IMG/VR virus record: IMGVR_UViG_3300028043_000002 | Location: 1-57,880 of that record | Length of the DNA: 57,880 bases | Direction: 5' to 3' (one strand) | From: a virus | Lineage: Duplodnaviria > Caudoviricetes | Shown: positions 24,889 through 40,095 of the stretch, piece after piece | How the letters are laid out: the number at the start of each line of letters is the position of its first letter | How positions within the stretch are numbered: the stretch's first letter is position 1 | Position numbers and translations under genes: made by a program | Notes under the pieces: generated by a model | Seen by the model: only the letters and a program-made list of their open reading frames with translations | What the model was told of the DNA's origin: nothing | Database searches by the model: none

Positions 24889-25081
24889 TCACCAAATCCT
24901 TCAGTAAATCCTTCGCCTAAAAGTCTTCGATGAGTGGGCTAGTGTTTTCTTAAAAAGGTCTTTGGGACCGTTTAAAATGATTTACGGAGGGTCCAGAACA
25001 GTAAGGTCCTATTATCTATTTATTTGTGTAGTAATTTAATATATCTGTGATTTAAGTAACCATTATAAGGGGGTAATAACC

Positions 25082-25858
25082 ATGAAAAACGCGTATTTTG
25101 ACTATCTTAATATCCCGGTTATTTCCCTTGAAAACCTTGATGTTTCCTGGGTTGATACCCTTAGAAACCATGGTATTACCCCCCATAAAGAGGCCCGTAT
25201 TTGGTTGAATTCCATTGGTATGACCCCCAACGATAATCTCGAACTGTTCATAGAAAGGACTATTATAGGGTGTGCCCAACAGTTTAACTTCTGGCAGGAT
25301 AATCCTGGTATGAGGTCTGAAACTGTATGGGAATGGCTCCGTAGTGATTATAGATATATACCTGATAATTGGAATCTTTATAGTATTAGAACTATTATAC
25401 ATAACGAAGTTGGAAAGTTCATCCATGAGAATAGGCCCCTGTATAAGGCTATTAATAGGGCCGAATTCTGGCATGATATGAATAAAGTGTTTAATCCTAT
25501 ACCGGGTTTCTGGGATCCGGTATATAAGAAGGTCTTCTTGGTTCAATACATTCTTACCGACCTCGGTATATGTTTCCGGGGTTGGAAGAACACCGGTTAT
25601 GGTTGTATAGATTATAACCTCCTGATAGTGTTTAAGTATTTTGGCATCCTTGATTTCCCCGATCTTGAGTGGCATAACAAGATCGACCTGGATGCCTATA
25701 GACTGAAAGCTTATTCTATTTGTTATCATACTTGTAAGGTCCTTAATATGACCCCTTCGGAATTGGATGGTTATGCCTTCCTGGGTGGTAGGTACCTTAG
25801 GAAGAAGACCGAGTACCAGGTTAACATTCCTAAGGTTTATAATGAAACCAACTATTAA
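25082..25858 (+). CDS. Queuosine-salvage (QNG1/DUF2419)-like glycosylase-fold protein
   Basis: Ordered motifs QFNFW, DPVYKKVFL, CIDYNL..V.KYFGILDF, ELDGYAFLGGR and terminal ETNY parallel the family motifs NFCFW, DP..KRAQ, ADY.LP..L...G.L.Y, ID..LW..G and T..Y. Confidence 0.65.
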   Translation: MKNAYFDYLNIPVISLENLDVSWVDTLRNHGITPHKEARIWLNSIGMTPNDNLELFIERTIIGCAQQFNFWQDNPGMRSETVWEWLRSDYRYIPDNWNLYSIRTIIHNEVGKFIHENRPLYKAINRAEFWHDMNKVFNPIPGFWDPVYKKVFLVQYILTDLGICFRGWKNTGYGCIDYNLLIVFKYFGILDFPDLEWHNKIDLDAYRLKAYSICYHTCKVLNMTPSELDGYAFLGGRYLRKKTEYQVNIPKVYNETNY

Positions 25859-25872
25859 CAAGGAGGTGTGTT

Positions 25873-26175
25873 ATGGAAGCTTTCATGGAACTGGTGCGGT
25901 TCTTGGCTAAGGCTAAGCCGTGGGATCCGTTCGTTCCCGGCTATGTTCCGTCCATGGACAAGGAGAGGATTGCTGTCTTGGATCTTCTCTTAAATCAGAT
26001 CCATGAGTGGAATTGGGACGGCAGGATCAGCGGCATGGTGGCCGGAAAAGCCGCCATTGGTTTATTGCGTCTGTTCGAAGCAGACTTTCTGACCCCGCTT
26101 CAGAAGCGGGAGTTGGTGGAGTGGTTTGATGGAATTAAGTTGGGCGAAGCCTACCTGAAAAGGTTGGTTGAATAA
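25873..26175 (+). CDS. Hypothetical protein
   Basis: AAGGAGGTG RBS; 100 aa. Confidence 0.75.
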   Translation: MEAFMELVRFLAKAKPWDPFVPGYVPSMDKERIAVLDLLLNQIHEWNWDGRISGMVAGKAAIGLLRLFEADFLTPLQKRELVEWFDGIKLGEAYLKRLVE

Positions 26176-26186
26176 GGAGGTGTTTT

Positions 26187-26441
26187 ATGAAAGGAAAGGT
26201 TTGTGGCCTTTGGTGTGGTGGGGAATTAGTTGTGGAGTTGAATTATGGTTTGGGGGTAGTGTTGTTTGTAAGCGGGGGGTTTGTGGAGAAGTATTATGAG
26301 GAGCTAATAGATATGATGTTTAGTGATGTAGAGTTTGAAGTATTGAAAAAGGGGGAGAGTTTGTGGGTAGTGGAGTTATTTGGTATTAAGTTGATTGGCA
26401 GGGTTTATTTTGAAAGTTTGTTTGGAGGCTTGATTGAGTAA
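26187..26441 (+). CDS. Hypothetical protein encoded by a cytosine-depleted gene
   Basis: AAGGAGGTG RBS; 6 C in 255 nt; no A, P, H, Q or T residues. Confidence 0.75.
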   Translation: MKGKVCGLWCGGELVVELNYGLGVVLFVSGGFVEKYYEELIDMMFSDVEFEVLKKGESLWVVELFGIKLIGRVYFESLFGGLIE

Positions 26442-26458
26442 TTAAAAAAACTAAGGAG

Positions 26459-27808
26459 GTGATGGCCATGAACAGGAAAGCCCTTCGGCGGCAAGTCCTG
26501 GACTCCCTCCTCTTACCTCAGGAGTTCGGATTTCCTGGGCTGCGCTTTCCAGTTTTAGGTGGGCATCCCAACTCCTGGGAGGTGTTAACTCCGAAGCGTA
26601 GCTTCGATGGGAGGGAGGGCTCTTACCGAGCGTGGCATGGCCATGCGAGCCTCGAACTCCTCCCTGGCTACGATTCTTGTGACGAAGAAGACGAGGACTT
26701 TGACGTACCATTTGAAAATCGGGCGATGGCAGCTATGGCGTTGCTTCTTAGAGTAGAATACAGCGACGTCCTGCAATTCGTTAATGAAGCCATCGCCATA
26801 TTCCTAAAGAGGCTCGACCCGGAGGCTTTGCGGGTTGCTCGGTTGTTCAGTATTAGACGCCGCCTATTTGTCCTTCAGACGATTTATGAGAAGGGTAAAA
26901 GGTGTGCACAACTGTTTGAGTCCTTCCCAGTACTAGCCGCAACCATTTACAACGCGTCTGGTGACACGGGGTATCAAGAACTACATACCTTCGTGGAAGA
27001 GGGTTTGAAGGCTTCGGATATTGCCCATGTAATTGATTTACCGAAGTCTTATAAGAAGGTCCCTCACTCAGTAGCTTTCGTGGTAGGAAGACATTTCAAC
27101 ATTTTTAAAGACGTGGTTGAGTTCATGCCCACTCATCCACATGAAGCGGTTTTCTTTGTTAGGGGAGTTACCCACTTCCTTGGAGGGTTTAGTCGCTCCC
27201 CGGCTAAAAGGTGGCTTGCCCAGAACTGGACTAGAATCAGGGATGAAAGGTTTCTCTTTCAATTAGAATTAGAACACCCTCGGAGGATTAACATAGACAT
27301 GTGGGTAGAGGAGTTTTTTGACTTTGTACGTGCAGAAGAATTATACGGGGTTAGGCCATTCAACCCTGACATGTCGGTTACCACAGTGATGCGCCTAGTG
27401 GCAGAGTGGCATGATAGGGTAGCACATGCACGAAGGCTTGAGGAAGAGGAAAACTTTGACAAGGTACTTCGGTTGCCAAGGATGCCCACCTCCACTATGG
27501 AGGGGTTCACCTTTAAGCCTCTTACTACGAGGCGCGAGCTGGACGCAGAGGGTCGTGCCATGCACAATTGCGTCTATTCGTATGCCGAGAGAGTACGGGA
27601 TGGTGACTGTGACATCGTGTCCGTACGTAAGGGTGCTGACCACGTGGCTACTATGGAAGTAGTCCTTGGTGAAGGAGAGCTGCTCGAGGTTGCTCAATTA
27701 CGTGGTAAGCGCAACACAGAGGTGCCTGGCGATGTTCGGCGTGCGTGTAAATCCTGGCTCGACCTTTTAAATCTTAATAGGGAAGGAAAGGAGGATGGTG
27801 ATGGCTAG
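26459..27808 (+). CDS. PcfJ-domain protein
   Basis: C-terminal EWH...PLTT..EL.AEG..MHNCV.SY......AT.E......QL.G..N signature. Confidence 0.85.
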   Translation: MMAMNRKALRRQVLDSLLLPQEFGFPGLRFPVLGGHPNSWEVLTPKRSFDGREGSYRAWHGHASLELLPGYDSCDEEDEDFDVPFENRAMAAMALLLRVEYSDVLQFVNEAIAIFLKRLDPEALRVARLFSIRRRLFVLQTIYEKGKRCAQLFESFPVLAATIYNASGDTGYQELHTFVEEGLKASDIAHVIDLPKSYKKVPHSVAFVVGRHFNIFKDVVEFMPTHPHEAVFFVRGVTHFLGGFSRSPAKRWLAQNWTRIRDERFLFQLELEHPRRINIDMWVEEFFDFVRAEELYGVRPFNPDMSVTTVMRLVAEWHDRVAHARRLEEEENFDKVLRLPRMPTSTMEGFTFKPLTTRRELDAEGRAMHNCVYSYAERVRDGDCDIVSVRKGADHVATMEVVLGEGELLEVAQLRGKRNTEVPGDVRRACKSWLDLLNLNREGKEDGDG

Positions 27809-27992
27809 GAAGATTATCGCCCACAAGGTTTCCTCCCGCTTAGATCGAAAGATCAAAGCTCAAGGGTTTTGGTGGGGTTATGTTTTACTCCGACACCTGG
27901 GGAGGTCATGTAACAACTGCGTTGATATGAAAAGAAGAAGTTTTGGTGACCCTTGGAAGCGGTGCGATGATCATGATGGTGGAAACGTTTAA
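27795..27992 (+). CDS. Small hypothetical protein
   Basis: AGGAGG RBS; 65 aa. Confidence 0.55.
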   Translation: MVMARKIIAHKVSSRLDRKIKAQGFWWGYVLLRHLGRSCNNCVDMKRRSFGDPWKRCDDHDGGNV

Positions 27993-28011
27993 GTAGAAAG
28001 GAGGTGATGAA

Positions 28012-28329
28012 ATGAACCCCCTTCAATCCTTCACCTTAGGGGCTTTGTTCAATGGCAAACTGGAAGTAATAGAAGTTGGGGGCTTACGCTATCTCCGTCT
28101 TGGAAAAGGCATTGACGTGATTGAGGTAGGAGATGTCGATGCTTTGTTAATGAATGGCGTACAAGAGTCTAACCACTTTGGCTTGAAGTTAGACGATGTA
28201 GCTATTTATGACAACGGCCCCGAGATGGAGTTTCTGGGCTTCAATAAGTCTGTTGATGTTTGCTTAGGGGAGCCTCGTGACCTTGATAGCGCCGACCATG
28301 TTATCTATAAGGGAGTAATCCTAAAGTAG
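28012..28329 (+). CDS. Hypothetical protein
   Basis: AAGGAGGTG RBS; 105 aa. Confidence 0.7.
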   Translation: MNPLQSFTLGALFNGKLEVIEVGGLRYLRLGKGIDVIEVGDVDALLMNGVQESNHFGLKLDDVAIYDNGPEMEFLGFNKSVDVCLGEPRDLDSADHVIYKGVILK

Positions 28330-28341
28330 GGAGGGAAGGAT

Positions 28342-28503
28342 ATGACTAGGCTAAGAAAGATTTACGTGGATGGGGTAAAGGGGCACGAAGAGGTTCCTGG
28401 TGAGGTGGAGGAAAAGTTTGTAAAAGACTATAGCTTCGGGATGCGAGACCTTCGCTACGTCCCGGAAGTCAAACCTGAAGAGGAGGGGAAAGATGGTTTA
28501 TAA
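28342..28503 (+). CDS. Small acidic protein (53 aa, not in the ORF track)
   Basis: MTRLRKIYVDGVKGHEEVPGEVEEKFV...; GGAGGG RBS. Confidence 0.6.
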   Translation: MTRLRKIYVDGVKGHEEVPGEVEEKFVKDYSFGMRDLRYVPEVKPEEEGKDGL

Positions 28504-28552
28504 GATCATCTAGGGCTTGCGTCAACAGCCACAATTAAATTTAAATAACCCC

Positions 28553-28592
28553 GGTGGGAGGCTAATAACCGGAAAGGTGAAATAATACCACC
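28553..28592 (+). promoter_or_regulatory. Leader motif A, copy 1
   Basis: GGTGGGAGGCTAATAACCGGAAAGGT..AATACCACC just upstream of the 28614 RBS; repeated at 29245 and 31376. Confidence 0.7.
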
Positions 28593-28613
28593 AACGGGGA
28601 AAGGTGATCTGTT

Positions 28614-29054
28614 ATGGGGCATCCGAAGCAGGGAGATGTCTACATTGTCAAGCCTGGAGTGACAGTTGTCCTCCTTAGGCAACACATGGTGGACTTCTTC
28701 CTGTGTGCTCGGATCAACCCGTTCTTCGAGGGAATCAAACCCTTCGATCTCCTACTCGAAGGAGATGAGTGGAGCTTTCGGTTCCAGGCTCTGTTAGAGG
28801 CATGGAACGTAGTCTCGATTCATCGAGAGGATCTCGAGGTATCGGGTCTGAGCAAGCGGATCGGCCAGGTTAGCCCACAAGTGGTTATCTGGGGAAACGA
28901 GCTGGAGAGAGCTTCTAGGCTCTTCGACGAAGTCCCAGAGCACTTGAAGGAGCACACCGGTTCTCCTTATGAGAAGGTCGATCCGAGGTTGGACGAGATG
29001 TTCGAATCTGATGCTGTCATATGTCAGGTTCGACGTTTGTTCCACGAGCTCTAG
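28614..29054 (+). CDS. Hypothetical protein, possible PemK/MazF-like fold
   Basis: PKQGDVYIV...VVLL...PFDLLL...SIHREDL...KRIGQVS resembles the MazF pattern. Confidence 0.45.
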   Translation: MGHPKQGDVYIVKPGVTVVLLRQHMVDFFLCARINPFFEGIKPFDLLLEGDEWSFRFQALLEAWNVVSIHREDLEVSGLSKRIGQVSPQVVIWGNELERASRLFDEVPEHLKEHTGSPYEKVDPRLDEMFESDAVICQVRRLFHEL

Positions 29055-29159
29055 ATCCGGGGGCCAAACCTGACATCTTCGGGATGTCCGAGTCTAACCC
29101 AGCTTGGGAACAGAAATGGGTTTTTTGTTTTTAGGAAATCGAAGAGGGGGGGTATTGAT

Positions 29160-29237
29160 ATGTCAAGATGGCTCGCATACTTAGTTGCGGTGAGCCTTGG
29201 ATTGTGGGTTGCGTATTGGGTAGTCAAGGCATTTTAA
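29160..29237 (+). CDS. 25-aa single-TM peptide
   Basis: MSRWLAYLVAVSLGLWVAYWVVKAF; G-rich RBS. Confidence 0.5.
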   Translation: MSRWLAYLVAVSLGLWVAYWVVKAF

Positions 29238-29244
29238 TAACCCA

Positions 29245-29282
29245 GGTGGGAGCCTAATAAGCGGAAAGGTTAAAATACCACC
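29245..29282 (+). promoter_or_regulatory. Leader motif A, copy 2
   Basis: GGTGGGAGCCTAATAAGCGGAAAGGTTAAAATACCACC. Confidence 0.7.
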
Positions 29283-29303
29283 AAGGGGGAAAGAGGTGAG
29301 CTT

Positions 29304-29456
29304 ATGAAGCCCATCTGGCAGGTTTGCCCCAGCTGTCCAAAGTGGATGGCTGATGGGCATCTGTTCCTGATGAACCTTTATTGGTACATAAAGGATCGTC
29401 AGGTTCGCCGCTTCCTCTGGATCTACTTCGGTCGCCGTTTTGGTGGCCGTCCCTAG
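29304..29456 (+). CDS. Small protein (50 aa, CxxC; not in the ORF track)
   Basis: MKPIWQVCPSCPKWMADGHLFLMNLYWY...; GAGGTG RBS after motif A. Confidence 0.6.
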   Translation: MKPIWQVCPSCPKWMADGHLFLMNLYWYIKDRQVRRFLWIYFGRRFGGRP

Positions 29457-29487
29457 TTCAAGGAAGCTCTTGGTGATTAACCCTTAA

Positions 29488-29515
29488 GCCTTGTAGGTGG
29501 GTTGGTTAAACCTTC
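29488..29515 (+). promoter_or_regulatory. Leader motif B, copy 1
   Basis: GCCTTGTAGGTGGGTTGGTTAAACCTTC; five copies, each intergenic and upstream of an RBS. Confidence 0.75.
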
Positions 29516-29544
29516 ATTTGGTCTTTAGAAAGGAGGTGATATTT

Positions 29545-29739
29545 ATGGCGATAGAGGTTCTCGTGTCCCGTGAAGAGCAAGTTCCCGAGGGCTTCTGGTC
29601 TGAGGTGACTGAGGCTGGAATCATGGTCTTGGTCAAGACGTTAGAAGACCTAATGTTCCTCCTCATGCACAACCAGAAGTTGTTAGGGAAGCTGGAAGTG
29701 GTTCACCTAACTTCCACCCTCTTAGCAATCAACACCTAA
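29545..29739 (+). CDS. Small hypothetical protein, paralog of 31963..32160
   Basis: AAGGAGGTG RBS; G..V.V.TLE.L..L and LT..L.A.N shared with the paralog. Confidence 0.7.
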   Translation: MAIEVLVSREEQVPEGFWSEVTEAGIMVLVKTLEDLMFLLMHNQKLLGKLEVVHLTSTLLAINT

Positions 29740-29786
29740 CCTGAACATGAACTAAATAAACGCGGTGATGTCGACACCGTAAGGAG

Positions 29787-30194
29787 GTGATTAAAATGAC
29801 TTGTCGAACCCTTCGCATCCACGTCAACGAAGAGTATGGCTATCGCGATTGGATTATCTTCATGACCGAGAAAGAACTTCTTCACTTGGTCAATAATGGC
29901 GGTACGATTCCTGCCGCTCCAATCGATGGTACAACGCTCTTCTTCCTTAGGGATAACCACTACCTCGATGGTGTCCTTTACACGGAGCTTGGGAATGAAG
30001 ATCACGACAATCTTCTAGTCCTTGGCGACCCCCATAAGGACTCCCGACATAAGGTACGTCGTATCCCTTCACCGCCGTTGGTAGGCATTCATTGCTATCA
30101 ACCCCCTATTAAGGGGCGCAATCTTTGGAATCGCTGCGACGATACCCCCGACCGTTGGCAGTGGCATTGTTGCGACGAATTCCCTTGGGCATAA
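29787..30194 (+). CDS. Hypothetical protein
   Basis: AAGGAGGTG RBS (true start may be ATG 29796). Confidence 0.7.
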   Translation: MIKMTCRTLRIHVNEEYGYRDWIIFMTEKELLHLVNNGGTIPAAPIDGTTLFFLRDNHYLDGVLYTELGNEDHDNLLVLGDPHKDSRHKVRRIPSPPLVGIHCYQPPIKGRNLWNRCDDTPDRWQWHCCDEFPWA

Positions 30195-30400
30195 CCCTCC
30201 TATCTTAAAAGGGGGTGTGAAGTGTTGTGGGAACATTCGCACCAAGTTAGTCCTTTAAGTTTGAAGGGGTGCCCCTGGTTCCTTTCTATTCCCAAACCCC
30301 TATATCAAGATCCAACTACCTTATTAGTATTTCCCTGGCCTCTTTGGCGGCCCTCAATTTTTGCTTAGCCTATTGTTGATCACTATTAGCAGGAGGAGAT

Positions 30401-30565
30401 ATGAACTTCTTGTTAAGCAACATGATTTTGGCAGTTGGGCTTAGCTGGTACTTTAATACCAGCTACCTTCAAGCTTTTACCGTTGCGGTGGTCATTGGTG
30501 GAATCATGGCCACTCTAAACGTTGTCCTGTCTCGTTTTAGCAAGGTGTTCAGATATCCTTGGTAA
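30401..30565 (+). CDS. Small two-TM membrane protein (54 aa, not in the ORF track)
   Basis: MNFLLSNMILAVGLSWYF...AVVIGGIMATLNVVLSRF; AGGAGG RBS. Confidence 0.6.
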   Translation: MNFLLSNMILAVGLSWYFNTSYLQAFTVAVVIGGIMATLNVVLSRFSKVFRYPW

Positions 30566-30578
30566 AGGGGGGTCCACA

Positions 30579-30863
30579 ATGGATTGGATGTTAATGGTTA
30601 TGGATTGGATAATTGAAGAGGGGTTTAATTGGTTTGTGGAGGTGGATAATGTTTGGTTAAGAATTGAAAAGGGGGATGTGAAAAAGGAGGAGGTGGAGTT
30701 GTGGAAGAGGTTTAGGATTACAAGGAATAAATGGAGTGAAAGGTGGGGGAATGAGTTTGAGGATGGGGAGGTGGTATTTGTTGTAAGGAATGGGTTGGGG
30801 AGAATGAAGTATGTGAAAATGGAAAAGAAGGAGTTAATGAAGGTTTTGAAGTATGGAGTTTAG
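30579..30863 (+). CDS. Hypothetical protein encoded by an essentially cytosine-free gene
   Basis: ATG 30579 after AAAGGGGGG; 94 aa; a single C (30721) in the CDS. Confidence 0.75.
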   Translation: MDWMLMVMDWIIEEGFNWFVEVDNVWLRIEKGDVKKEEVELWKRFRITRNKWSERWGNEFEDGEVVFVVRNGLGRMKYVKMEKKELMKVLKYGV

Positions 30864-30888
30864 TTGGTTTAAATAAAGGAGGGAGGTC

Positions 30889-31113
30889 GTGATGGTAGCA
30901 TTAGTTCGAATGTACAAAGGTCAAATCCGGATTTCTTACATTAGGGAACCCAAGCTCCAAACCTCCCAAGAAGAAATTGATCTGAGGGATCGGGCGCGTA
31001 GGAAGAGGTTACTGAAAATTGAGTTCAACAACTTCAAGGCCACTCGTAGCTGGAAGTTTTGGTTTCGGGGCCGCTACCAGTGGCAAAAGAATTTGAGAAA
31101 GGAGGTGATATAG
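30889..31113 (+). CDS. Small basic protein
   Basis: AAGGAGGGAGG RBS. Confidence 0.6.
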   Translation: MMVALVRMYKGQIRISYIREPKLQTSQEEIDLRDRARRKRLLKIEFNNFKATRSWKFWFRGRYQWQKNLRKEVI

Positions 31114-31299
31114 TTGACCAAGGCAGAAGCTTCGAAGGTCTTTGGCTTCAAGAAGGGCAAGCTTTTGGTTGCCCGTGAAGCCGGTAGGGACCACATGAAG
31201 GAAGCGTATGCCCTCCAAAGCATGTTGAAGGAGGAGGGCATCGATTCCAAGCTGGACATGAATGCCAGCCCCTTAGGCCCTACTATTATTTTAGTCTAA
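31114..31299 (+). CDS. Small hypothetical protein
   Basis: TTG start after AAGGAGGTG. Confidence 0.6.
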   Translation: MTKAEASKVFGFKKGKLLVAREAGRDHMKEAYALQSMLKEEGIDSKLDMNASPLGPTIILV

Positions 31300-31351
31300 A
31301 CCTTCTGAGAACGTGCGGCCATAAAGTCCGTACGTTCAATTGAAGGCTTAG
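31296..31351 (+). other. Long imperfect RNA hairpin (RNase III-like processing site or terminator)
   Basis: CTAA.CCTTC...GAACGTGCGG / CCGTACGTTC...GAAGG.TTAG with a G-U pair; intergenic. Confidence 0.55.
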
Positions 31352-31375
31352 TCAAGTGTGAGTTAAATCTAATGG

Positions 31376-31414
31376 GGTGGGAGCCTAATAAGCGGAAAGG
31401 TAAAAAATACCACC
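31376..31414 (+). promoter_or_regulatory. Leader motif A, copy 3
   Basis: GGTGGGAGCCTAATAAGCGGAAAGGTAAAAAATACCACC. Confidence 0.7.
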
Positions 31415-31433
31415 CTGGGTCCCAGGTAGGGTC

Positions 31434-31886
31434 ATGAACAAGCTCTACGTTGTGAAGGCCTATAATGGGGAAACGTACGAGGACTACGACGTACGTCCCA
31501 TTATGGCATTCTCAACCGCGAAAGCTGCTTGGCAACTTAAGCGGGAGATGAATGCTAGGCTTAATAACGCGCGGCGCGTTCGCGATGCTTTCAGGGCTGA
31601 GTTTCGTGAGGTCAAGAAGATGATTGCTTCAGTCATCGGTCCTTGTCCTCGTCCGAATCGAAGCCCTTGGAGAGACGATCCAAGGCGTGAATGGTTGAAT
31701 CGCCTTGAGAGTCTCGCTTGGCGGAAAATGCCAAAAAGCTTCCATGGTCCGTCTTTATGTGGGTACGCCTCGGATGAATTTCCTGAGATTGACTTCTTCC
31801 ACTTCAGTGATGAAGGGGAATTTCAGGGGGGCATTCCCACACCCCGGGCGGTCTTCTTTATCACTACGCTTCCGTTTGGGGGCTAA
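31434..31886 (+). CDS. Hypothetical protein
   Basis: 150 aa; N-terminus LYVV....GE.YEDY....AFST...A is common in phage early proteins. Confidence 0.7.
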   Translation: MNKLYVVKAYNGETYEDYDVRPIMAFSTAKAAWQLKREMNARLNNARRVRDAFRAEFREVKKMIASVIGPCPRPNRSPWRDDPRREWLNRLESLAWRKMPKSFHGPSLCGYASDEFPEIDFFHFSDEGEFQGGIPTPRAVFFITTLPFGG

Positions 31887-31892
31887 TTAAGG

Positions 31893-31920
31893 GCCTTGTG
31901 GGTGGGTTGGTTAAACCCTC
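31893..31920 (+). promoter_or_regulatory. Leader motif B, copy 2
   Basis: GCCTTGTGGGTGGGTTGGTTAAACCCTC. Confidence 0.75.
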
Positions 31921-31962
31921 TCTTAGTCAAATAAAGCCTGTATGGGAAAGGAGGTGATGAAG

Positions 31963-32160
31963 ATGGGTGAGGCTTTAATTCCTAACGGTTATGCGCGTGA
32001 GGCCCTGTCAACAGGGTTACCACAAACCCAAGTTGATGTTGGAGTTTTTGTACAGGTCGATACTCTTGAGGAGCTTATCCTCCTGTACAATGCTCTCTCC
32101 GAAGCCGGGTATCGAGGGAAGCTTGTGCCCTTGACCGGGAGCTTGATTGCCTTTAACTAA
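31963..32160 (+). CDS. Small hypothetical protein, paralog of 29545..29739
   Basis: AAGGAGGTG RBS; shared motifs. Confidence 0.7.
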   Translation: MGEALIPNGYAREALSTGLPQTQVDVGVFVQVDTLEELILLYNALSEAGYRGKLVPLTGSLIAFN

Positions 32161-32173
32161 GAATTAATTAAGG

Positions 32174-32201
32174 GCCTTGTGGGTGGGTTGGTTAAACCCT
32201 C
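32174..32201 (+). promoter_or_regulatory. Leader motif B, copy 3
   Basis: GCCTTGTGGGTGGGTTGGTTAAACCCTC. Confidence 0.75.
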
Positions 32202-32231
32202 ATTTGGTCTTTAGAAAGGAGGTGAAACAGA

Positions 32232-32456
32232 ATGCCTATCACGCGGGAAGAATATGCCGAGATGTACACACCTGGTCATTGGGCCATCAAGGAGGAAGTT
32301 TTGTCGGCCCTTGAAAGCGGGGCCTGGCTTATCGACTACGGAGCCTACGACGAGCTGAACCATCAGTACCGTCTGTGCTTCGTCGACGGCGAATGCCTCG
32401 TCACCGTCCCCAACGAGGAGAAGGACTTCCTAGACTCGTTCTTGCAAAAGGAATAG
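32232..32456 (+). CDS. Small acidic hypothetical protein
   Basis: AAGGAGGTG RBS. Confidence 0.7.
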   Translation: MPITREEYAEMYTPGHWAIKEEVLSALESGAWLIDYGAYDELNHQYRLCFVDGECLVTVPNEEKDFLDSFLQKE

Positions 32457-32564
32457 GGTCTAGGTAGTTCCTCCTGGAAAAGAAAGGAGGTGAGATTGAT
32501 GAGGATACGTAGGTATTGGTAATGAATGGTTTGTAAGTTGCTGATCAAGGAAGTTAACCCCTAA

Positions 32565-32592
32565 GCCTTGTGGGTGGGTTGGTTAAACCCTC
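32565..32592 (+). promoter_or_regulatory. Leader motif B, copy 4
   Basis: GCCTTGTGGGTGGGTTGGTTAAACCCTC. Confidence 0.75.
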
Positions 32593-32635
32593 TCTTAGTC
32601 AAATAAAGCCGGTATGGGAAAGGAGGTGAAACAGA

Positions 32636-33016
32636 ATGTCTAAGAAGGCAATGTCCAAGCGGGCCCGGGTCCTGCAGGCTATTGGGATCTCTATGGATCC
32701 CAACAAGCCTCTCCGTCAACAAGCTGGAGGGGTGAAGCCGAAGAAAGCCGGGATTAGCATGGAGGGGCCTTATCGGACTTCCTCGTACGACATTGATCCC
32801 TGCAAATCCTGCAACTGCTTTAACTGCGGGAGTCGAGCGAAAGACGCCAAAGGGAACTTTGTCGTGTGTGTGGAATGTCCGCAAGGCAACCACCGCATCA
32901 AAGGGCGGCCCGTTGGCTGTACTGGATGCCCGAAGCGTGTTGAGCGCGTGTACGAAGCTCCGCACGCAAGGACTAACCTTGGCGACCTCATCATGGCCGC
33001 TCTCAGTAAAAAGTAA
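32636..33016 (+). CDS. Cys-rich Zn-binding protein
   Basis: CKSC, CFNC, CVEC and CTGC motifs; AAGGAGGTG RBS. Confidence 0.75.
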   Translation: MSKKAMSKRARVLQAIGISMDPNKPLRQQAGGVKPKKAGISMEGPYRTSSYDIDPCKSCNCFNCGSRAKDAKGNFVVCVECPQGNHRIKGRPVGCTGCPKRVERVYEAPHARTNLGDLIMAALSKK

Positions 33017-33025
33017 ACCCTTCTG

Positions 33026-33052
33026 GCCTTGTAGGTAGGTGGTTAAACCTTC
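33026..33052 (+). promoter_or_regulatory. Leader motif B, copy 5 (variant)
   Basis: GCCTTGTAGGTAGGTGGTTAAACCTTC. Confidence 0.7.
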
Positions 33053-33067
33053 AAAAGGAGAACTGCT

Positions 33068-33343
33068 ATGAAGAAAGAACGTAACCGCGGCGATTTATTG
33101 TCTCAACTACGAATCCACCTTGAAAGGTTTGCCCGTGAGGCTGAAAAGCTTTCTCACGAACTTGGTGAGACGGGCAGACCATTAACGCGGCCAGAGAGGA
33201 GGGTTGTCTATCAAACCATCGATGGACTCCTCAGGGATTGTATGGACGAAGCCACCCTCTTTGTCCTCAACGACTCCCCCGAAGACCTTGACTCTGCCAT
33301 AGATCACATCAAGGTCTGGATGCAGTTTAAGAGGGAATTCTAA
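33068..33343 (+). CDS. Hypothetical protein
   Basis: AAGGAG RBS. Confidence 0.7.
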   Translation: MKKERNRGDLLSQLRIHLERFAREAEKLSHELGETGRPLTRPERRVVYQTIDGLLRDCMDEATLFVLNDSPEDLDSAIDHIKVWMQFKREF

Positions 33344-33362
33344 ATCTAAAAAGGAGGTTCGG

Positions 33363-33653
33363 ATGAAGGCATTACTAATCTCAATCCCCGCTGAGCCTGC
33401 TCCTCAACGGTTTTGGACGAATCTCGGCCCCAAGACCATCGAGGAGATTTTGGCTGAACTCAACAAGAAGGGGTCGCGGCTCAACTACGGCATGCTGTGC
33501 CACGAGGCAAAGGATGCTGTTGAAGATGCCCTTATGGAACGAGACTCGGTAAAAGAAACCCGTGCTCGTCAGGCGAAGAAGGCCCGCGACAAGAAGAAGT
33601 GGGATGACAACAAAAGGGCAGCTGCCCAGCGGCAAGATCGGCGCCGCCGCTAA
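33363..33653 (+). CDS. Hypothetical protein with basic C-terminus
   Basis: AAGGAGG RBS. Confidence 0.7.
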   Translation: MKALLISIPAEPAPQRFWTNLGPKTIEEILAELNKKGSRLNYGMLCHEAKDAVEDALMERDSVKETRARQAKKARDKKKWDDNKRAAAQRQDRRRR

Positions 33654-33668
33654 ACAAGGGGTGAGACA

Positions 33669-33887
33669 ATGTACAAGTGCGCTTCATGTGGCAAGCAAGT
33701 TGGTCCTCGAGTTCCCCAAAGAAAGAAGGTTCTCGAGACGAGGATGGTCGATCACATAGACCCCGCTCCCAAGGGCTATCAAGGCTCGACGGAGTGGGAT
33801 GGCAAAAGCAAGGTGATCATCACCAAAGGTAAAACCCAAATCGTTCGAGAGGTTGGCGTGTGTCTCGCCTGCGCCGGCGTTGACTAA
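33669..33887 (+). CDS. Zn-ribbon protein
   Basis: CASC ... CLAC. Confidence 0.7.
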   Translation: MYKCASCGKQVGPRVPQRKKVLETRMVDHIDPAPKGYQGSTEWDGKSKVIITKGKTQIVREVGVCLACAGVD

Positions 33888-33913
33888 CCCTATTTCCAAA
33901 AGGAGGCAAAGTC

Positions 33914-34087
33914 ATGGAATTGAAAACTTTTCAAGACCTTTTGCACCTCCAGTCACCACCGAAGGTGCAAGAGGAGGCTAGGAAGCAGGTCCGTGAGTTC
34001 CATCGCATTTCTATCCGCCTATGGAAGGCATTCACCCGCAAGATGGAAAGGGAGGGTAGAAGGCAATGGATGGCTACTGCATCCTAG
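33914..34087 (+). CDS. Small protein (57 aa, not in the ORF track)
   Basis: MELKTFQDLLHLQSPPKVQEEARKQ...; AAGGAGG RBS. Confidence 0.55.
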   Translation: MELKTFQDLLHLQSPPKVQEEARKQVREFHRISIRLWKAFTRKMEREGRRQWMATAS

Positions 34088-34290
34088 TATTCCCGTGTTA
34101 TAAGTGCGGCGTTCTGTTCTCTTTTCACCCCCGCTACGTACCCAGCGTTCGCGATGGGCAAAACGTTAAGCAGCCCATTTGCCAGCCTTGCATTGAGACC
34201 GCGAATGGCATCAGGGCTAACAAAGGGCTACCTAAGCTTGAGGTTCACCCCCGAGCTTACGAGCCCTACTTCCCAGAAGGAGAACTTTAA
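34066..34290 (+). CDS. Zn-finger protein
   Basis: CYKC...F.F.P..VPS.......ICQPC. Confidence 0.7.
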   Translation: MDGYCILVFPCYKCGVLFSFHPRYVPSVRDGQNVKQPICQPCIETANGIRANKGLPKLEVHPRAYEPYFPEGEL

Positions 34291-34488
34291 TGGGGGTTAG
34301 CAATGGAAAGGAGGGCGGTAATTCGTGAACTGATTAGAAGTCAGGAGTCCACTTATTTCTCAGTGGGCCTTCGTCAACGCCTTAATATTATTAAACAAAT
34401 CCCAACCGGAACGTCCTTTCGGGGGACTATTGTCAAACTCCGTGGACTCTTTTGGATCAAGTCTGGGAGACATTAGGGAGGGTAAGCC

Positions 34489-34917
34489 ATGAAGGGATTG
34501 ACTGAGATTCTCGAGAAGATGGCAGCGAAGGAGGCTCAGTATGCAACTGTTGTCGAAGTTAGGGCAGCATACGACGCCCTCAACCAGGTTCACGCTTTTA
34601 AGCCTGGTGATCTCGTTATGTGGAAAGAAGGCCTGCGCAACAAATTAAGTCCCCTTAGGGGAGAGCCGGCGATCGTTTTGGAGGTCCTCGAGTCTCCTCT
34701 CTATGACGTTAACGCCCCAGCCGATAGCTCCGCCTTTCTGGAGCCCCTAGATATCTCCCTTGGTGTGATTAAGTATGAGGGTGATACTGGTTCACTTATA
34801 GTCTTTCACTTCGACTCCCGGAGGTTTCAACCGTATGACGGAAACCTCGCGCGGCAAATCCGGGAGGAGGACAAGGCGCGGAGAGAGTTGGAACAAAATT
34901 CCCAAATGGTTTCTTAG
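34489..34917 (+). CDS. Conserved-looking phage hypothetical protein
   Basis: FKPGDLV.WK.GL.NK..P....P.IVLEV...FDSRRF pattern; RBS. Confidence 0.75.
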   Translation: MKGLTEILEKMAAKEAQYATVVEVRAAYDALNQVHAFKPGDLVMWKEGLRNKLSPLRGEPAIVLEVLESPLYDVNAPADSSAFLEPLDISLGVIKYEGDTGSLIVFHFDSRRFQPYDGNLARQIREEDKARRELEQNSQMVS

Positions 34918-34947
34918 GAAGCCACAATCTAAAGGGAGGGAAGGCAG

Positions 34948-35235
34948 ATGGGACTTGTAGTGAGGAGTACCGCTGAGGGGGGAGCCCTTGCGTGTGACCC
35001 TGCGACAGTGGGAGATGTCATAAGGTTTCTTCAGGAGTTTCCACCTGAGATGGTCATCTTCTGGGACATCGAATGTGTTGTTGACCCTGAGGATGAAATT
35101 TTGCTGCTGCGAGACTCCAACACCAGCCACTTGCTATCTGTCATCAAACAGTGCCCCCAGTGTAGCCATGCTGTGACTGAGCGGGAAGCAACAAGGCCCG
35201 CTAGCATGCCCAAGTCAACGGACCACAAACACTAA
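34948..35235 (+). CDS. Hypothetical protein
   Basis: TVGDVIRFLQEFPPEM (TV..L...L..P.D type); RBS. Confidence 0.65.
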   Translation: MGLVVRSTAEGGALACDPATVGDVIRFLQEFPPEMVIFWDIECVVDPEDEILLLRDSNTSHLLSVIKQCPQCSHAVTEREATRPASMPKSTDHKH

Positions 35236-35250
35236 AAAGGAGGAGGACAC

Positions 35251-36366
35251 ATGATAAGGTTCCCTGTATCAATGGATGCCTGGACCAGGGCCTACCCGGA
35301 GTTCGCCGTCAAGGCTTCACACTTCCAGGAGCTTGAGGAGGTGGGCAAGAGCGTTACTCTAAGTGTTACTGGGAGGATGCGTTCGTCCCTATCACCCCCC
35401 TTGTTTGACAAAGTGACCCAGCTACTTCATCAGCAGTGGGGAGGCAAACTAATCGGTGGCTGGCACCAAAATGAACTGGTGCTCTTCACTAAGGGCCTTG
35501 TTGTGGTTATGGGGGTTTCACCTCCCCTCGTCGCCTATTCTATCTTCGCCAACTCCATTAATGAGTGTCGAACGTATGAGCAGGACCTGCTGCGCCTGTT
35601 AGATGGGACCTTTCAGCTGCGGGAGCCTGCCATTCGCGCACCCATCGACGTAGTGTGGTACACTAAAGTCGTGGATGGGGGAATCCTCCAATACCGCTTC
35701 TCTGAAATGATGGATGAAATGGTCTTTCCAGAATCCTACCCCTACATCGTTGATTTACACAAGTACATCCGGAGCTTTATCGAGGGTTCGGAGGCCGTTC
35801 TCGTATTATCAGGCCCCCCAGGAACAGGAAAGACGCGACTCATCCGTAGAATCTTGAGAGTGTTGGGAGATTTGCACGCAGAGGAGATGGAAAGGGAGTG
35901 GAAGAAGGGGAGACTCGTCGATGACATCGATGCTGATAATAATATCTTTTATCCCCCGGGGCTGAACGTGGGGTATACTACCCAAGCTGAAGTCCTGCAA
36001 GCGAGTGAAATCTATCTTGCCTTACTGTCAGGCCATATAGGGGCCCTAGTGCTTGAGGATATCGACTTCCACCTGAAGGCCAGGAAGGAAGGCAACGTGG
36101 CGATGTATCAACTACTCGCCGCGTCAGATGGCTTGGTGACGGGGTTGGGGGGTAAGAAGGTTATTGTGTCCACCAACCTTGAGGAGATAACCCACATTGA
36201 TGCGGCCCTCATTCGACCGGGTCGTTGCTTTGATACTCTGCATACCAGGCTCTTAAGCCCTGAAGAGGGTGAAGTGTTGTTGCAGAAGTTGGGGCATACG
36301 GTGCGAGTGTGTGAGAGCCTCTCGCTTGCCGACCTTTACAAGTACCACAACACCAAACAAACCTAA
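35251..36366 (+). CDS. AAA+ ATPase
   Basis: Walker A GPPGTGKT, Walker B LVLEDID, STN...IDAALIRPGR second region of homology. Confidence 0.9.
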   Translation: MIRFPVSMDAWTRAYPEFAVKASHFQELEEVGKSVTLSVTGRMRSSLSPPLFDKVTQLLHQQWGGKLIGGWHQNELVLFTKGLVVVMGVSPPLVAYSIFANSINECRTYEQDLLRLLDGTFQLREPAIRAPIDVVWYTKVVDGGILQYRFSEMMDEMVFPESYPYIVDLHKYIRSFIEGSEAVLVLSGPPGTGKTRLIRRILRVLGDLHAEEMEREWKKGRLVDDIDADNNIFYPPGLNVGYTTQAEVLQASEIYLALLSGHIGALVLEDIDFHLKARKEGNVAMYQLLAASDGLVTGLGGKKVIVSTNLEEITHIDAALIRPGRCFDTLHTRLLSPEEGEVLLQKLGHTVRVCESLSLADLYKYHNTKQT

Positions 36367-36380
36367 AGGAGGAGCAAGAA

Positions 36381-36644
36381 ATGAAGAAAGGGAAAAAGAA
36401 GGACGTGGCCATGAAGTGCATCAGGATTCATCACTACTATTCTGATGCAAAGGTTGAGGAGAAGGGTCAACTGGTTTCAGGCATTCCACTGCATCGCGCT
36501 GAAGCAGTAGTTAGTGAACAGCGTCGAGGTATTGTGGAAATCATCGCTGGTGAGATTACCGTTGTGCTTCGGGACATCTATCAGCGATTCACCAACCAGT
36601 CCTTCAGCCTATTTAAGGCAGAGGACATAGCAGAGGGCTTATAA
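36381..36644 (+). CDS. Hypothetical protein
   Basis: AAGGAGG RBS. Confidence 0.65.
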   Translation: MKKGKKKDVAMKCIRIHHYYSDAKVEEKGQLVSGIPLHRAEAVVSEQRRGIVEIIAGEITVVLRDIYQRFTNQSFSLFKAEDIAEGL

Positions 36645-36658
36645 GGAGGATTAAAGAC

Positions 36659-37039
36659 ATGTCAGAGGCAACAACCTTAAAGAGGCACTTGGAGAAGAGC
36701 GATTACTTCAAGTACCTCAAAAACCAGGAAGACCTGAGGCGGCTCATTGATGAAGAAATTCCATCACTTATGGTCGTCGATGGGTTAGTCGGCAATGGAG
36801 AGTACGCGGTTCTTCCATTGTATGACGTTATTGACTACTGGAACTCCAAGGGGCAAGGGTATGGTCTCAGCTGGGAGCGTATGTACGAGCTGGAAGACAA
36901 GTTCATGGTCGCTTGGCGCATCCGGCACCACTCCGCCCTTGGTATCCGCCAAATGAAGTATGGTGACAAGATACAGCCATGTATCTATGTCAAGACACCA
37001 AGACGCCGAAAGGAGAAGATGGACCGTGCGAACTCGTAG
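36659..37039 (+). CDS. Hypothetical protein
   Basis: AAGGAGG RBS; 126 aa. Confidence 0.7.
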   Translation: MSEATTLKRHLEKSDYFKYLKNQEDLRRLIDEEIPSLMVVDGLVGNGEYAVLPLYDVIDYWNSKGQGYGLSWERMYELEDKFMVAWRIRHHSALGIRQMKYGDKIQPCIYVKTPRRRKEKMDRANS

Positions 37040-37303
37040 AGCCATGAAAGAGAGGCCAAGAGTTTACACTACCACGTTCTTAGTGTTTCTCGACCGAATT
37101 ATGACATCGGCCGAGTCCCTTGATAACACCACCTCCGAGCGCATGGATTGGATGCGGAAACAAATCTGGATTCTCCAACTCATCTCCCCTTTCTTTGGGT
37201 TAATGATGGATAGGGCTGCTCAAGGAAAGGTTATGACAGGACATGAAAGTTTCATCTTCCACTCTTTTCCTAAGAGGGCAAAGGACTGGTCATCGTGGGA
37301 CGA

Positions 37304-37344
37304 AAAATTAAGGGGGTGAGCTTCTAAAATCACCCCTTAATTTT
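37304..37344 (+). terminator. Long inverted repeat at operon boundary
   Basis: AAAATTAAGGGGGTGA-loop-TCACCCCTTAATTTT. Confidence 0.55.
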
Positions 37345-37349
37345 AGCCA

Positions 37350-37378
37350 TTGATTTCGCCTAAATAATCCAATAAAAT
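37350..37378 (+). promoter_or_regulatory. Sigma70-type promoter
   Basis: TTGATT-17 bp-TAAAAT upstream of 37418. Confidence 0.7.
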
Positions 37379-37417
37379 AAAACAAGAAAAATGTAGCAAG
37401 AAAAAAGGAGGAGCAAG

Positions 37418-37702
37418 ATGAACACACTGGATTTAAGAATGGTTCCGAAGTCGATGTTGGATGCACTTCATGTTGAACTGGACAACGCCCTGGCCAACAT
37501 TTGTCGCAAGCTTGACGCTGCCGCAGGGCAAATTCCCGCAAGCATTGAACTGGAACTCGTGTACCCACGTTCGTTGAAGGAGGGAGACCTCAGCGTAATT
37601 GTTCACTACTTCTATGTTGCTGAGGTTAGCCAAAGCGGAAGGGTTGACAGTTCGTGTGACGGGCAGACTTTATACATCAACGGCGAAAAGTTTGACATTT
37701 AA
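37418..37702 (+). CDS. Hypothetical protein
   Basis: AAGGAGG RBS; first gene after the promoter. Confidence 0.7.
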   Translation: MNTLDLRMVPKSMLDALHVELDNALANICRKLDAAAGQIPASIELELVYPRSLKEGDLSVIVHYFYVAEVSQSGRVDSSCDGQTLYINGEKFDI

Positions 37703-37711: not shown

Positions 37712-38854
37712 ATGGTAGACAAGATGTATGTGTCCATTCCTGACATGAAGAAGTTGTTCCCCATTATCTGGTCGGAAGGCCCCAGGAGAGTCACTATAAG
37801 ACTCGTAGGAGAAAGTGGCATTGGCAAAACCCAAGGCACGATCCAGTGTGCTGAGGAGTTGGGTTGCCCTTACATCCTCGTGAACGTCCCAGCTGAGATT
37901 CCGGAGCCTGCAGACCTTCAAGGTCAATGCCAAATTTACGAGGGAAAAACTGTTTACGTTCCCCCTTTCTGGGTGGTTGATGCCAACAACCTCGCAGAGA
38001 GCACGGACAGGCAGTATGTCATTCTCATTATCGACGAGCCTTCACGGGCACCGTTGCAGATCTTACAAGCTTTGATGCCTATGGCATTGGAGTACCGTGT
38101 AGGGTCTGCTCCTTTACATCCCAAGATAAGGCAGGTGTGGCTTGATAACCCCACAGAGAGTGCGCAATACAACGTGCGCTCTCTTGACTTCGCTCAAGAG
38201 GAGAGGGTGCAAACGTTCCATCTTCAGTACGACGAAGATGCATTCTTTGCACACGCCCTCGACACAATCAAGTTCCACCCGGAGCTCTTCACCTTCTTGA
38301 AGCAGTTTCCTGAGATGTTGTGGAACTTTGACAAGAAAATACAAGGCCCCCTTTCCCCCAGGACCGCAGAGTACGGCAGCCAAGCTTGCTATGCTCTCGA
38401 CAAGGCGAAGGTGTCTTTCGACAGTCACCTCGGGATCCTGAGGCTCAGTGCACGTCTGGGTATTGAGGTTACCCACACATTCGTTGCCAACCTGCGGGTG
38501 CAGAAGCATTGTATCCCGCCTCACGAGATCCTGGAGCGTACTTTCAGGAGGGAGAAGTTGAATGAAATTCTCGCTCCAGGCAACCACGATCTGTGTTGGA
38601 TGACACTGTGGAGGCTCGCAGCTGACATCTCGAGGAGGGAGAAACTGACGCGGACTCAGGTTGCTAACGTCAGGCTCTTCATCGAAGATAACCCCTCCGA
38701 TGAGATCAACTACGTGTTCCTTAAGACGATGCCAGCCAAGCACGGACACGAAATTTTGGACCCGAAGCTTCTCGCGCGCATCACGGACCGCATTAAAGAT
38801 CTGCCGCGCGACCACTACCTTACCAAGGCCAAAGAATTGAAGGAGGGAAAATGA
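37712..38854 (+). CDS. MoxR/AAA_5-like ATPase
   Basis: GESGIGKT, EPADLQG, PPFW, ILIIDEPSRA and SPRT motifs; paired with a DUF2201 gene. Confidence 0.85.
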   Translation: MVDKMYVSIPDMKKLFPIIWSEGPRRVTIRLVGESGIGKTQGTIQCAEELGCPYILVNVPAEIPEPADLQGQCQIYEGKTVYVPPFWVVDANNLAESTDRQYVILIIDEPSRAPLQILQALMPMALEYRVGSAPLHPKIRQVWLDNPTESAQYNVRSLDFAQEERVQTFHLQYDEDAFFAHALDTIKFHPELFTFLKQFPEMLWNFDKKIQGPLSPRTAEYGSQACYALDKAKVSFDSHLGILRLSARLGIEVTHTFVANLRVQKHCIPPHEILERTFRREKLNEILAPGNHDLCWMTLWRLAADISRREKLTRTQVANVRLFIEDNPSDEINYVFLKTMPAKHGHEILDPKLLARITDRIKDLPRDHYLTKAKELKEGK

Positions 38855-40095
38855 GCGACGTGTTTGGGGCTCTCCGACGATTGATTCTGAAACTTCTCGG
38901 TGAAAGTCCCTTCTATGGCCACGTCTTGGCGTGTACCATAAAAGAGGTCAGCACAGAAATTCCATTTGCTGCGGGGATGAGGGTCACTAAAGATAAATTG
39001 GTGATCATAGTTAATCCTCAACCCTTCTTCGAGTACAGTGCAACGGAGCAGCTGTGGGTATTACTCCACGAGCTACTCCACTTCCTTTTCAAACACCCCT
39101 GGCGGGGAAGTGCTATGTCCTCAAAGTTACCCGAAAACCCCACAGAGTGGACTACAATGCACCTTCGGCTGTTTGTGGAGAATGTTGGGTTTGATCTCGC
39201 GATTAATTCGTTCGCGAAGACCCACGTCCAATACTCTTCACCCAAGGGAGCACTTTCCCCTGACATGTTCGGATTTCCAGAACACAAGACAGCTGAATGG
39301 TATATTCACCACCTCACCAAAGCAGGGAAATGTCCCAAACATGGTATTTCCTTACTTGGTGGTGGAAAAGGGCAAGGAGAGTGTGGATGCGAGCACCCTA
39401 AAGCAGGAAAAGCTCTTAAGGACTTGGTGGGTTCCTACTTTGGGCATGAATGGACTATTGAGTGTGAACCGTCCCAGGCAAACGCTCTTGCAGCTAGGAT
39501 TTTTGCCAACGCGGTTAAAATTGTTGGTACGGAGCCTGCAGGAGCTTTGAGGGACGTTTACAAGGTTGAGGCTGTCGCCGACTTCCGCAACGTGCTCATG
39601 AGGCTTGCGCAGTCGTCAGAGCTGACCGACGAGCAGTACTTCCACAAACGCAGAATCTCTAGACGCTTCCATCGTCCTCCAGGTTCAAGGTATGAACCTG
39701 CCGGAGAGCTCCACGTCTTACAAGATACCTCTGGCTCAATGGGTCCCGAAGACATTGGTGCGTGTTACAGCGTCATAAACAAACTTTACAGGATGGGCTT
39801 CTCAATTTGGGTGTACGAGTTCGATGCTGCCTTCCAAGGACCTGAATACCTCTACCGTGGGACTCCCCCACAAGTTAAGGGAGGTGGAGGTACTAAGATG
39901 ATGTCCACCCTTGAGCACGTGCACAAAACTAGGCCCAACATAAAACAAGTTGTGGTCTTTACCGACGCTGGTATCTTCGACATCCCTGAAGAAATTCCCT
40001 TCGGATTCAAGAGTGTCGTCTTCTGCATCCCTGATTGGGTAGACGACGCTCTTCCTGATTGGATAACGGTGGTGAAGTACAAATCAGCTAGGTAG
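38851..40095 (+). CDS. DUF2201-type metallopeptidase-VWA protein
   Basis: HELLH..KH and D.AINS in the N-terminal domain; MIDAS DTSGSM, GGGGT and FTD in the VWA domain. Confidence 0.9.
   Translation: MSDVFGALRRLILKLLGESPFYGHVLACTIKEVSTEIPFAAGMRVTKDKLVIIVNPQPFFEYSATEQLWVLLHELLHFLFKHPWRGSAMSSKLPENPTEWTTMHLRLFVENVGFDLAINSFAKTHVQYSSPKGALSPDMFGFPEHKTAEWYIHHLTKAGKCPKHGISLLGGGKGQGECGCEHPKAGKALKDLVGSYFGHEWTIECEPSQANALAARIFANAVKIVGTEPAGALRDVYKVEAVADFRNVLMRLAQSSELTDEQYFHKRRISRRFHRPPGSRYEPAGELHVLQDTSGSMGPEDIGACYSVINKLYRMGFSIWVYEFDAAFQGPEYLYRGTPPQVKGGGGTKMMSTLEHVHKTRPNIKQVVVFTDAGIFDIPEEIPFGFKSVVFCIPDWVDDALPDWITVVKYKSAR

Follow-up and report, generated by a model that had tools for sequence, protein, structure and literature searches.

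A conserved phage gene almost free of cytosine and a second C-poor gene in the same accessory region

A large uncultured freshwater-sediment phage carries a genuine, conserved protein-coding gene which is almost devoid of cytosine, and this avoidance of C acts at the nucleotide level and is maintained by selection. The gene (30579-30863, + strand) is situated in an IMG/VR fragment of 57,880 nt, rated 37% complete, which was analysed over its whole length and is called the window here. It encodes a protein of 94 aa, P0001, and contains one C. A second C-poor gene, encoding the 84-aa protein P0002 (26187-26441, + strand), was found 4.4 kb away. In the explanation which we prefer, tentatively and with somewhat less than even confidence, selection keeps the messages of both cistrons free of C so that they survive a C-dependent attack on RNA.

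The C-free zone extends over 310 nt (30578-30887, + strand) and comprises the ORF along with 24 untranslated nucleotides which hold the ribosome-binding site of the next gene. Its base counts are G 121, A 99, T 89 and C 1, against a C content of 21.9% in the whole window, and the lone C, at 30721, is inside the Thr codon ACA. The initial annotation had reported this single C and its codon, and the coordinates and counts hold. Finding one C or fewer in 310 nt has a probability of 5e-32, which becomes 3e-27 when corrected for the number of positions in the window. The longest C-free runs in the window (166, 143, 94, 64 and 51 nt) all fall within the two C-poor genes, the next longest being 45 nt, and the longest runs without A, G or T are 48, 62 and 32 nt, respectively. 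Among 107 mechanically called ORFs, the two C-poor genes have C fractions of 0.02 and 0.04 while the other 105 have at least 0.13. The Moorella phage MTATph1 (176.6 kb), taken as an outside control, showed a maximum run of 71 nt missing any one base.

The edges of the zone follow the cistron. It begins 1 nt before the ATG and ends 24 nt past the stop, one base before the next start codon, and the first C after it (30888) is the base preceding that downstream start codon. A C-free stretch of 24 nt after the stop was observed in 3 of 60 other genes. The upstream cistron (30401-30565, + strand), encoding a hydrophobic protein of 54 aa, has a C fraction of 0.20, and the downstream cistron (30889-31113, + strand; 74 aa) one of 0.18, which agrees with the earlier statement that the bias begins at the ATG and that the neighbours are normal. 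Taking both C-poor zones together, the flanking cistrons range from 0.18 to 0.22.

The gene of P0002, also named as C-poor in the initial annotation, has 6 C in 255 nt. Its C-poor zone (26156-26450, + strand; 6 C in 295 nt, P 1e-23) reaches over 31 C-free bases ahead of the gene, which include the ribosome-binding site, and 9 bases past its end; of 60 other genes, none is C-free over the 31 nt before its start. P0002 contains no Ala, Pro, His, Gln or Thr, and its frame was open in 10 of 20000 shuffles. Comparison of P0002 with P0001 by BLASTP gave an E value of 0.16; the two proteins are not homologous, and their C avoidance is convergent within the same phage. P0002 had no relatives in the databases searched, and the ESM Atlas gave only a poor model of it (pLDDT 0.41) whose neighbours are meaningless. 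As read by eye, 5 of the 7 C remaining in the two genes are at silent sites.

Several lines of evidence show that 30579-30863 is a real gene. The 94-codon frame was open in 3 of 20000 composition-preserving shuffles, while stops abound in the other two forward frames, C-free DNA being rich in stop codons. A G-rich ribosome-binding stretch with its spacer (30564-30578, + strand) precedes the ATG; it contains 3 C, including that of an ACA at 30576, and follows the upstream stop codon (30563-30565). A search of 5.8 billion clustered proteins and 1.84 billion representatives identified four relatives, namely P0003 (74% identity), P0004 and P0007 (59% each) and P0005 (49%), which align with P0001 without internal gaps. 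Their encoding contigs, of 596-1238 bp, come from ENA and Logan; searches of IMG/VR, JGI metagenomes and GTDB genomes, and of isolate phages by tblastn, found no homolog DNA. The protein sequence of P0001 is also present on a 175-kb contig. The gene is called real because its frame is open beyond chance and is accompanied by a ribosome-binding site, four homologs and a structure model.

No match to Pfam, PHROGs, NCBIfam or PADLOC was found for P0001 or P0002, the best E values of 0.04-0.06 being below the curated cut-offs. AlphaFold, supplied with a four-sequence alignment, gave a best P0001 model of pLDDT 81.7 and pTM 0.72 among five, the other four being near 60. In this best model the chain forms a helix, five strands and a helix, and the fold is predicted to be a generic two-layer alpha/beta sandwich. 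Foldseek found nothing at E <= 0.001 for the model in PDB or BFVD. The best VIA-align score was Z 7.8, with the C-terminal part of Mediator Med17, where the stated background of the tool is about 8; CyaY, of the frataxin type, and the TriTu immunity protein, which belongs to an Rhs toxin, were also below this background at Z 6.4 each. A PDB sequence search gave a best E value of only 0.75, and the ESM Atlas gave no usable neighbour. As the sandwich fold is common, no function follows from it, and the link of P0001 to defence is circumstantial.

To evaluate codon choice, 13,126 codons of 49 other window ORFs were used as reference. At 55 codons of P0001 the amino acid could be encoded either with or without C, and none of them contains C against 22.2 expected (log10 P -13.5); in P0002, C is present in 6 of 62 such codons against 24.9 expected. 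The description of P0001 as a protein without Ala, Pro, His and Gln, with Leu encoded only by TTA/TTG, Arg by AGA/AGG and Ser by AGT, was confirmed. The amino acids Ala, Pro, His, Gln and Thr, for which all codons contain C, make up 23.7% of the reference; in the five-member P0001 family (49-74% identity) they account for 1 of 194 residue states. This single state is Thr48 of the window copy, and the relatives have Val or Ser at this position. The initial annotation had proposed a check for homologs with normal C, and the five members were found to do without C-requiring amino acids except for this one Thr. Because just one of the 194 residue states across the relatives requires C, the avoidance is very probably a long-kept trait of the P0001 family and not an artefact. 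Such a family also shows that foldable proteins can be maintained with an alphabet of 15 amino acids, without Ala, Pro, His, Gln and Thr. The homolog DNA seen consists of two pieces from loose ends of variant contigs. A 30-nt piece from run X2, read by eye as P0004-type residues 21-30, contains no C, and neither does a 16-nt piece ahead of a P0003-type start codon.

Two causes at the level of decoding were rejected. The C-ending and T-ending codons of Asn, Asp, Phe, Tyr and Ile share a tRNA, so tRNA supply is not the cause; by the genetic code, C is avoided even where one tRNA reads both endings. Miscoding through C-to-U editing was ruled out likewise, as third positions, where a C-to-U change is silent, are also purged. 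Avoidance of restriction sites or of a PAM was dropped since the bottom strand keeps C.

The loss of C from one strand resembles the tracts left by hypermutation, and the zones could be a neutral by-product of strand-specific mutation, for example repeated deamination of C on an exposed strand. The mostly silent position of the remaining C agrees with this. However, the third letters of the C-free-choice codons in P0001 are G 37, A 16 and T 8, where G 26.9, A 22.2 and T 11.9 are expected from renormalised usage and G 25.5, A 21.0 and T 14.6 if every third-position C had become T. P0002 showed the same pattern, with 30 third-position G observed against 22.3 expected, and in each gene the C-to-T model fits less well, by about 3 log-likelihood units. 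Enrichment is thus in G and not in T, of which the tract holds 29%, and both C-to-T hypermutation and a bisulfite-like conversion were rejected; the check for a C-to-T artefact suggested in the initial annotation gave none by these synonymous third letters. The sharpness of the edges, exact to the base, and the persistence of the trait down to 49% identity also stand against a neutral origin, as does a low-depth variant contig which switches to a different downstream context exactly at 30887. A neutral origin is considered very unlikely.

As the record is metagenomic, the remaining doubt would be that the tract arose in assembly or through chemical change, or that the ORF is open by chance in non-coding DNA. 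Three public freshwater-sediment runs were compared with it, which are not independent because they are possibly the source samples of the record itself. Against an artefact, contigs from 3 of 3 of these runs carry the identical tract, the flanking DNA on the contig is normal, diverged homologs come from other ENA and Logan contigs, and the ORF is open far beyond chance. The variant summary of X1 has no changes towards C beyond those at 27435-27703, and that of X2 at most one more. The artefact reading is largely refuted and was given a negligible chance.

The composition affects the predicted properties of the message. A folding energy of -19.5 kcal/mol is predicted for the message of 285 nt, where 217 windows of the same length average -83.6 (sd 13.6), and the three weakest-folding windows all overlap the two C-poor genes. 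The antisense strand of the tract is G-free and C-rich. A physical property of the RNA could accordingly be the selected feature, in which the absence of G-C pairs and YC dinucleotides leaves the message unfolded and without Rho loading and gives efficient or unconditional translation. The weak folding and the G-free antisense strand agree with this. A partial depletion of C would suffice for such a benefit, though, and the near-total purge is left unexplained; lower G would help too, yet G is enriched. We give this explanation little credence.

A property of the DNA strand is another candidate. The displaced non-template strand would have no C to deaminate or excise during transcription, the template strand would have no G to damage or modify, or the G-rich RNA on its C-rich template would form an R-loop with a part in priming or regulation. 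The tract is 39% G and 71% G+A with a GC skew of about 0.98, third-position G is enriched in both genes, and the zones include untranslated bases, all of which suit a strand-level cause. Of the features associated with R-loops and G-quadruplexes, the high G skew is present, but no canonical G-quadruplex motif (four runs of G3+, loops of 1-7 nt) was found in either tract. Moreover, the edges of the zones track the cistron and not any visible DNA feature, the rest of the genome is transcribed likewise and is unpurged, and the window has no genes pointing to G or C modification. A strand-level cause appears improbable.

Short words were considered as well. ACA is present twice in or near the P0001 gene, at 30576 in the leader and at 30720 at the internal C, and is absent from P0002; the P0001 gene is therefore not proof against an ACA-cutting MazF, and the message is not of the ACA-less type which resists the E. 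coli MazF-type RNase. A CsrA sponge was dropped, with 24 GGA in the scanned stretch of the tract against about 15 expected by a hand estimate. Chi-like GGTGG words, of which 4 are present, are few more than the composition predicts.

Both C-poor genes appear, on a scan of the sequence, to be internal cistrons without a sigma-70-type promoter of their own. A gap of 13 nt separates the end of the upstream cistron from the ATG of P0001. A sigma-70 consensus scan, in which phage-specific promoters are outside the scope, found no promoter in the roughly 750 nt preceding either zone; the best of the weak matches seen by eye ahead of 26156 agrees at 6 of 12 positions and is below the scan threshold. 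No intrinsic terminator was found by the scan at the ends of either zone. The totals of promoter and terminator sites in the window do not exceed those of shuffles. Two families of repeats are present around the gene. One is an intergenic element (29488-29539, + strand) with five copies, at 29488, 31893, 32174, 32565 and 33026; the copies are 22-52 nt long, G/T-rich, end in a ribosome-binding site and each directly precede a small gene. The second family, an element of 31 nt, has three copies, at 28553, 29245 and 31376, the last followed by a hairpin at 31410-31429 (31376-31429 together). We infer that the element at 29488 heads, and the element at 31376 with its hairpin ends, the unit holding P0001; the repeats appear to frame a unit of six cistrons with P0001 as the fourth. 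Each family is a candidate signal specific to the phage, whether promoter, leader or terminator. Breaks in variant contigs are numerous at 29477-29540, which a repeat would be expected to cause.

This arrangement bears on the explanation offered by the initial annotation, namely that the genes are built to be transcribed when CTP is low or ddhCTP is present. The zone would then be a natural C-less cassette, copied with ATP, GTP and UTP and working under CTP scarcity or in the presence of ddhCTP. Every C would count in such a process, in keeping with a purge that is total and spares neither silent sites nor flanks, and C-less cassettes of 243-382 bp made in the laboratory are copied in the absence of CTP (PMC3388079). 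The benefit nevertheless needs transcription to start at the edge of the zone, where no sigma-70-type promoter was seen and where the window copy has 3 C within the 13 nt just before the zone. A polymerase arriving from upstream has already inserted many C, so the low-CTP idea is not supported as it was written. In addition, a gain for an internal cistron would be common to all downstream genes and would not single out one of them. Transcription independent of CTP is thus regarded as an improbable cause.

The position of the two genes in the genome is consistent with a role in conflict. The tail genes of the window (843-20803) are followed by a class II-like ribonucleotide reductase (RNR) and a 5'-3' exonuclease on the minus strand, and small + strand genes in a long array come next. 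The sole relative found, G001 (41.2 kb), has an RNR of 69% identity and shares the tail-fibre, RNR, exonuclease and MoxR/VWA modules with the window. The RNR/exonuclease and MoxR/VWA modules which flank 25082-37702 are syntenic between the two, while none of the tested window ORFs within 25082-37702 had a homolog in G001 at E <= 1e-4. On this basis both C-poor genes are placed in a hypervariable accessory region of small genes (25082-37702, + strand). Such regions are the usual seat of conflict genes, and the location of P0001 fits a conflict-related gene. G001 has no base-free tract over its 41.2 kb, its longest run missing one base being 55 nt. Close relatives of the neighbouring genes were searched and not found.

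Searches directed at the host pointed to no single one. The best tail-protein match is a Pseudanabaena phage at 28.5% identity, the RNR matches are scattered, and the cyanobacterial HIP1 word occurs once. Moorella phage MTATph1 has only the RNR and one ATPase in common with the window. No tRNA was found in the window, and an Rfam search gave no family at the gathering score.

Other features of the window were recorded as well. The intervals 6119-13174 and 15901-20803 encode a tail protein of 2351 aa along with a paralogous pair of fibre-like proteins (599 and 1036 aa), and diverged copies of this fibre module are numerous in G001. An S-adenosylmethionine decarboxylase-like gene (15479-15889) lies among the tail genes; CDS0021 of MTATph1, which otherwise has little in common with this phage, is annotated as S-adenosylmethionine decarboxylase and is likewise among structural genes. 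About 800 nt at 25052-25861 are open on both strands, with 258 aa on the + strand (25082-25858) and 269 aa on the - strand (25052-25861). This overlap is low in GC and located at the point where transcription diverges, and no family was matched by either product; the + frame is preferred in view of a promoter-like site at 24950-24978 and of a ribosome-binding site. At 37712-40095 a pair kept in G001 consists of a MoxR-like AAA ATPase and a VWA-like DUF2201 protein, and the MoxR-like ATPase is also found in MTATph1. At 50181-50700, at least 9 direct copies of the 14-nt core GAAACTTCTAAACG occur at a spacing of 38-41 or 66-76 nt, followed by inverted copies forming hairpins at about 50562-50692 (GC 0.395). 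The array looks like a set of iterons or operators; it may mark an origin of replication or be bound by a regulator. Direct repeats of 91 nt (93% identity, 423 nt apart) and 64 nt (94%, 262 nt apart) at 55392-56235 indicate a recent tandem duplication of small genes. The window ends inside the gene of a ClpC-like ATPase with Clp_N repeats and an AAA domain (56918-57880), a kind of cargo not usual in phages.

Escape of the message from a C-dependent attack on RNA would account for both the completeness and the confinement of the purge. The purge is total and includes silent sites, so something which acts at every C is called for. Its confinement to single cistrons argues against a benefit in elongation, unless a promoter which was not recognised is present at each edge. 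Damage to RNA is naturally cistron-specific, and this favours the escape of a message segment: a gene-specific purge within an operon is expected because damage to one cistron harms only that cistron. The C-poor zones extend into the untranslated flanks, and the flanking cistrons are normal. The selected property would lie in the transcript segment, with RNA as the proposed target. A C-less cistron would offer no site to an activity which cuts, modifies or otherwise acts at cytidine, and it would stay intact and translatable in the polycistronic message while the ordinary cistrons are destroyed. The agent directed at C might be a host defence, a toxin RNase or the shut-off of the phage itself.

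Known toxin RNases recognise motifs of 3-7 nt, and we know of no RNase with a specificity for a bare single C, which is the weak point of this explanation. Two observations also count against it, namely that P0002 tolerates 6 C and that 3 C are located between the ribosome-binding site of P0001 and its ATG. The interpretation made in the initial annotation is accordingly retained in part. The gene is real and the avoidance is conserved at the nucleotide level, while transcription at low CTP or with ddhCTP is not upheld in the form given. Of its proposal of counter-defence, the option that the genes survive when C-containing RNA is targeted suits the anatomy better, although no family or clear fold match accompanies it.

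Omission of one nucleotide from a whole cistron may be a general viral strategy, so far undescribed, by which phages would make the expression of a few first-line accessory genes immune to host immunity based on cytidine; we regard this as doubtful. A full-text literature search, covering journals outside subscription, found no description of natural cytosine-free genes. If the strategy is general, the immunity evaded would be viperins making ddhCTP, shortage of CTP, or RNases or deaminases dependent on C, and composition alone would flag counter-defence genes together with the defence they answer. If selection really removes a whole nucleotide from certain viral genes, viruses and hosts would also be in conflict over nucleotide chemistry, in a way that can be read from sequence. 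Such removal would provide a computational marker for genes needing expression under attack, would point to host activities acting on every cytidine and would give a design rule for messages surviving C-directed activities.

Some likeness to known systems is apparent. Prokaryotic viperins are a known defence and make the chain terminator ddhCTP, whose effect scales with the number of C per transcript; the internal-cistron anatomy of P0001 argues against a benefit at the level of transcription. The R-loop zones of ColE1 RNA II and of the immunoglobulin switch regions are marked by GC skew, their non-template strand being rich in G and poor in C for some hundreds of bases. These zones are non-coding and rich in G clusters, whereas the P0001 tract is a conserved ORF without the canonical quadruplex motif. 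The purine-rich sense strand of the tract recalls the purine loading of Szybalski's rule, which is, however, a mild and genome-wide skew in which T is not spared; here T is kept at 29% and only C is removed, in two genes. Selection is known to remove targets of host activities from phage genomes, restriction sites being one example. There, short words, most of them palindromes, are avoided on both strands throughout the genome, while here one base is avoided on one strand of two genes.

The closest parallels are engineered. The G-less cassette, like the C-less one, is a tool of in vitro transcription. Synthetic C-less cassettes are copied with three NTPs and the polymerase halts at the first C (PMC3388079). 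The P0001 tract resembles them in that a few hundred bases yield a transcript free of one nucleotide until a first C is reached. The cassettes are synthetic, non-coding and placed directly after a promoter, whereas the P0001 tract is a natural, conserved coding cistron with no visible promoter. In the ACA-less systems, a message recoded to lack the site of the RNase MazF is reported to leave only its own protein still being made (PMC9102682, PMC5408214). Those messages are engineered and lack a motif of 3-7 nt, while the message of P0001 is natural and conserved, keeps ACA twice and is missing a whole nucleotide.
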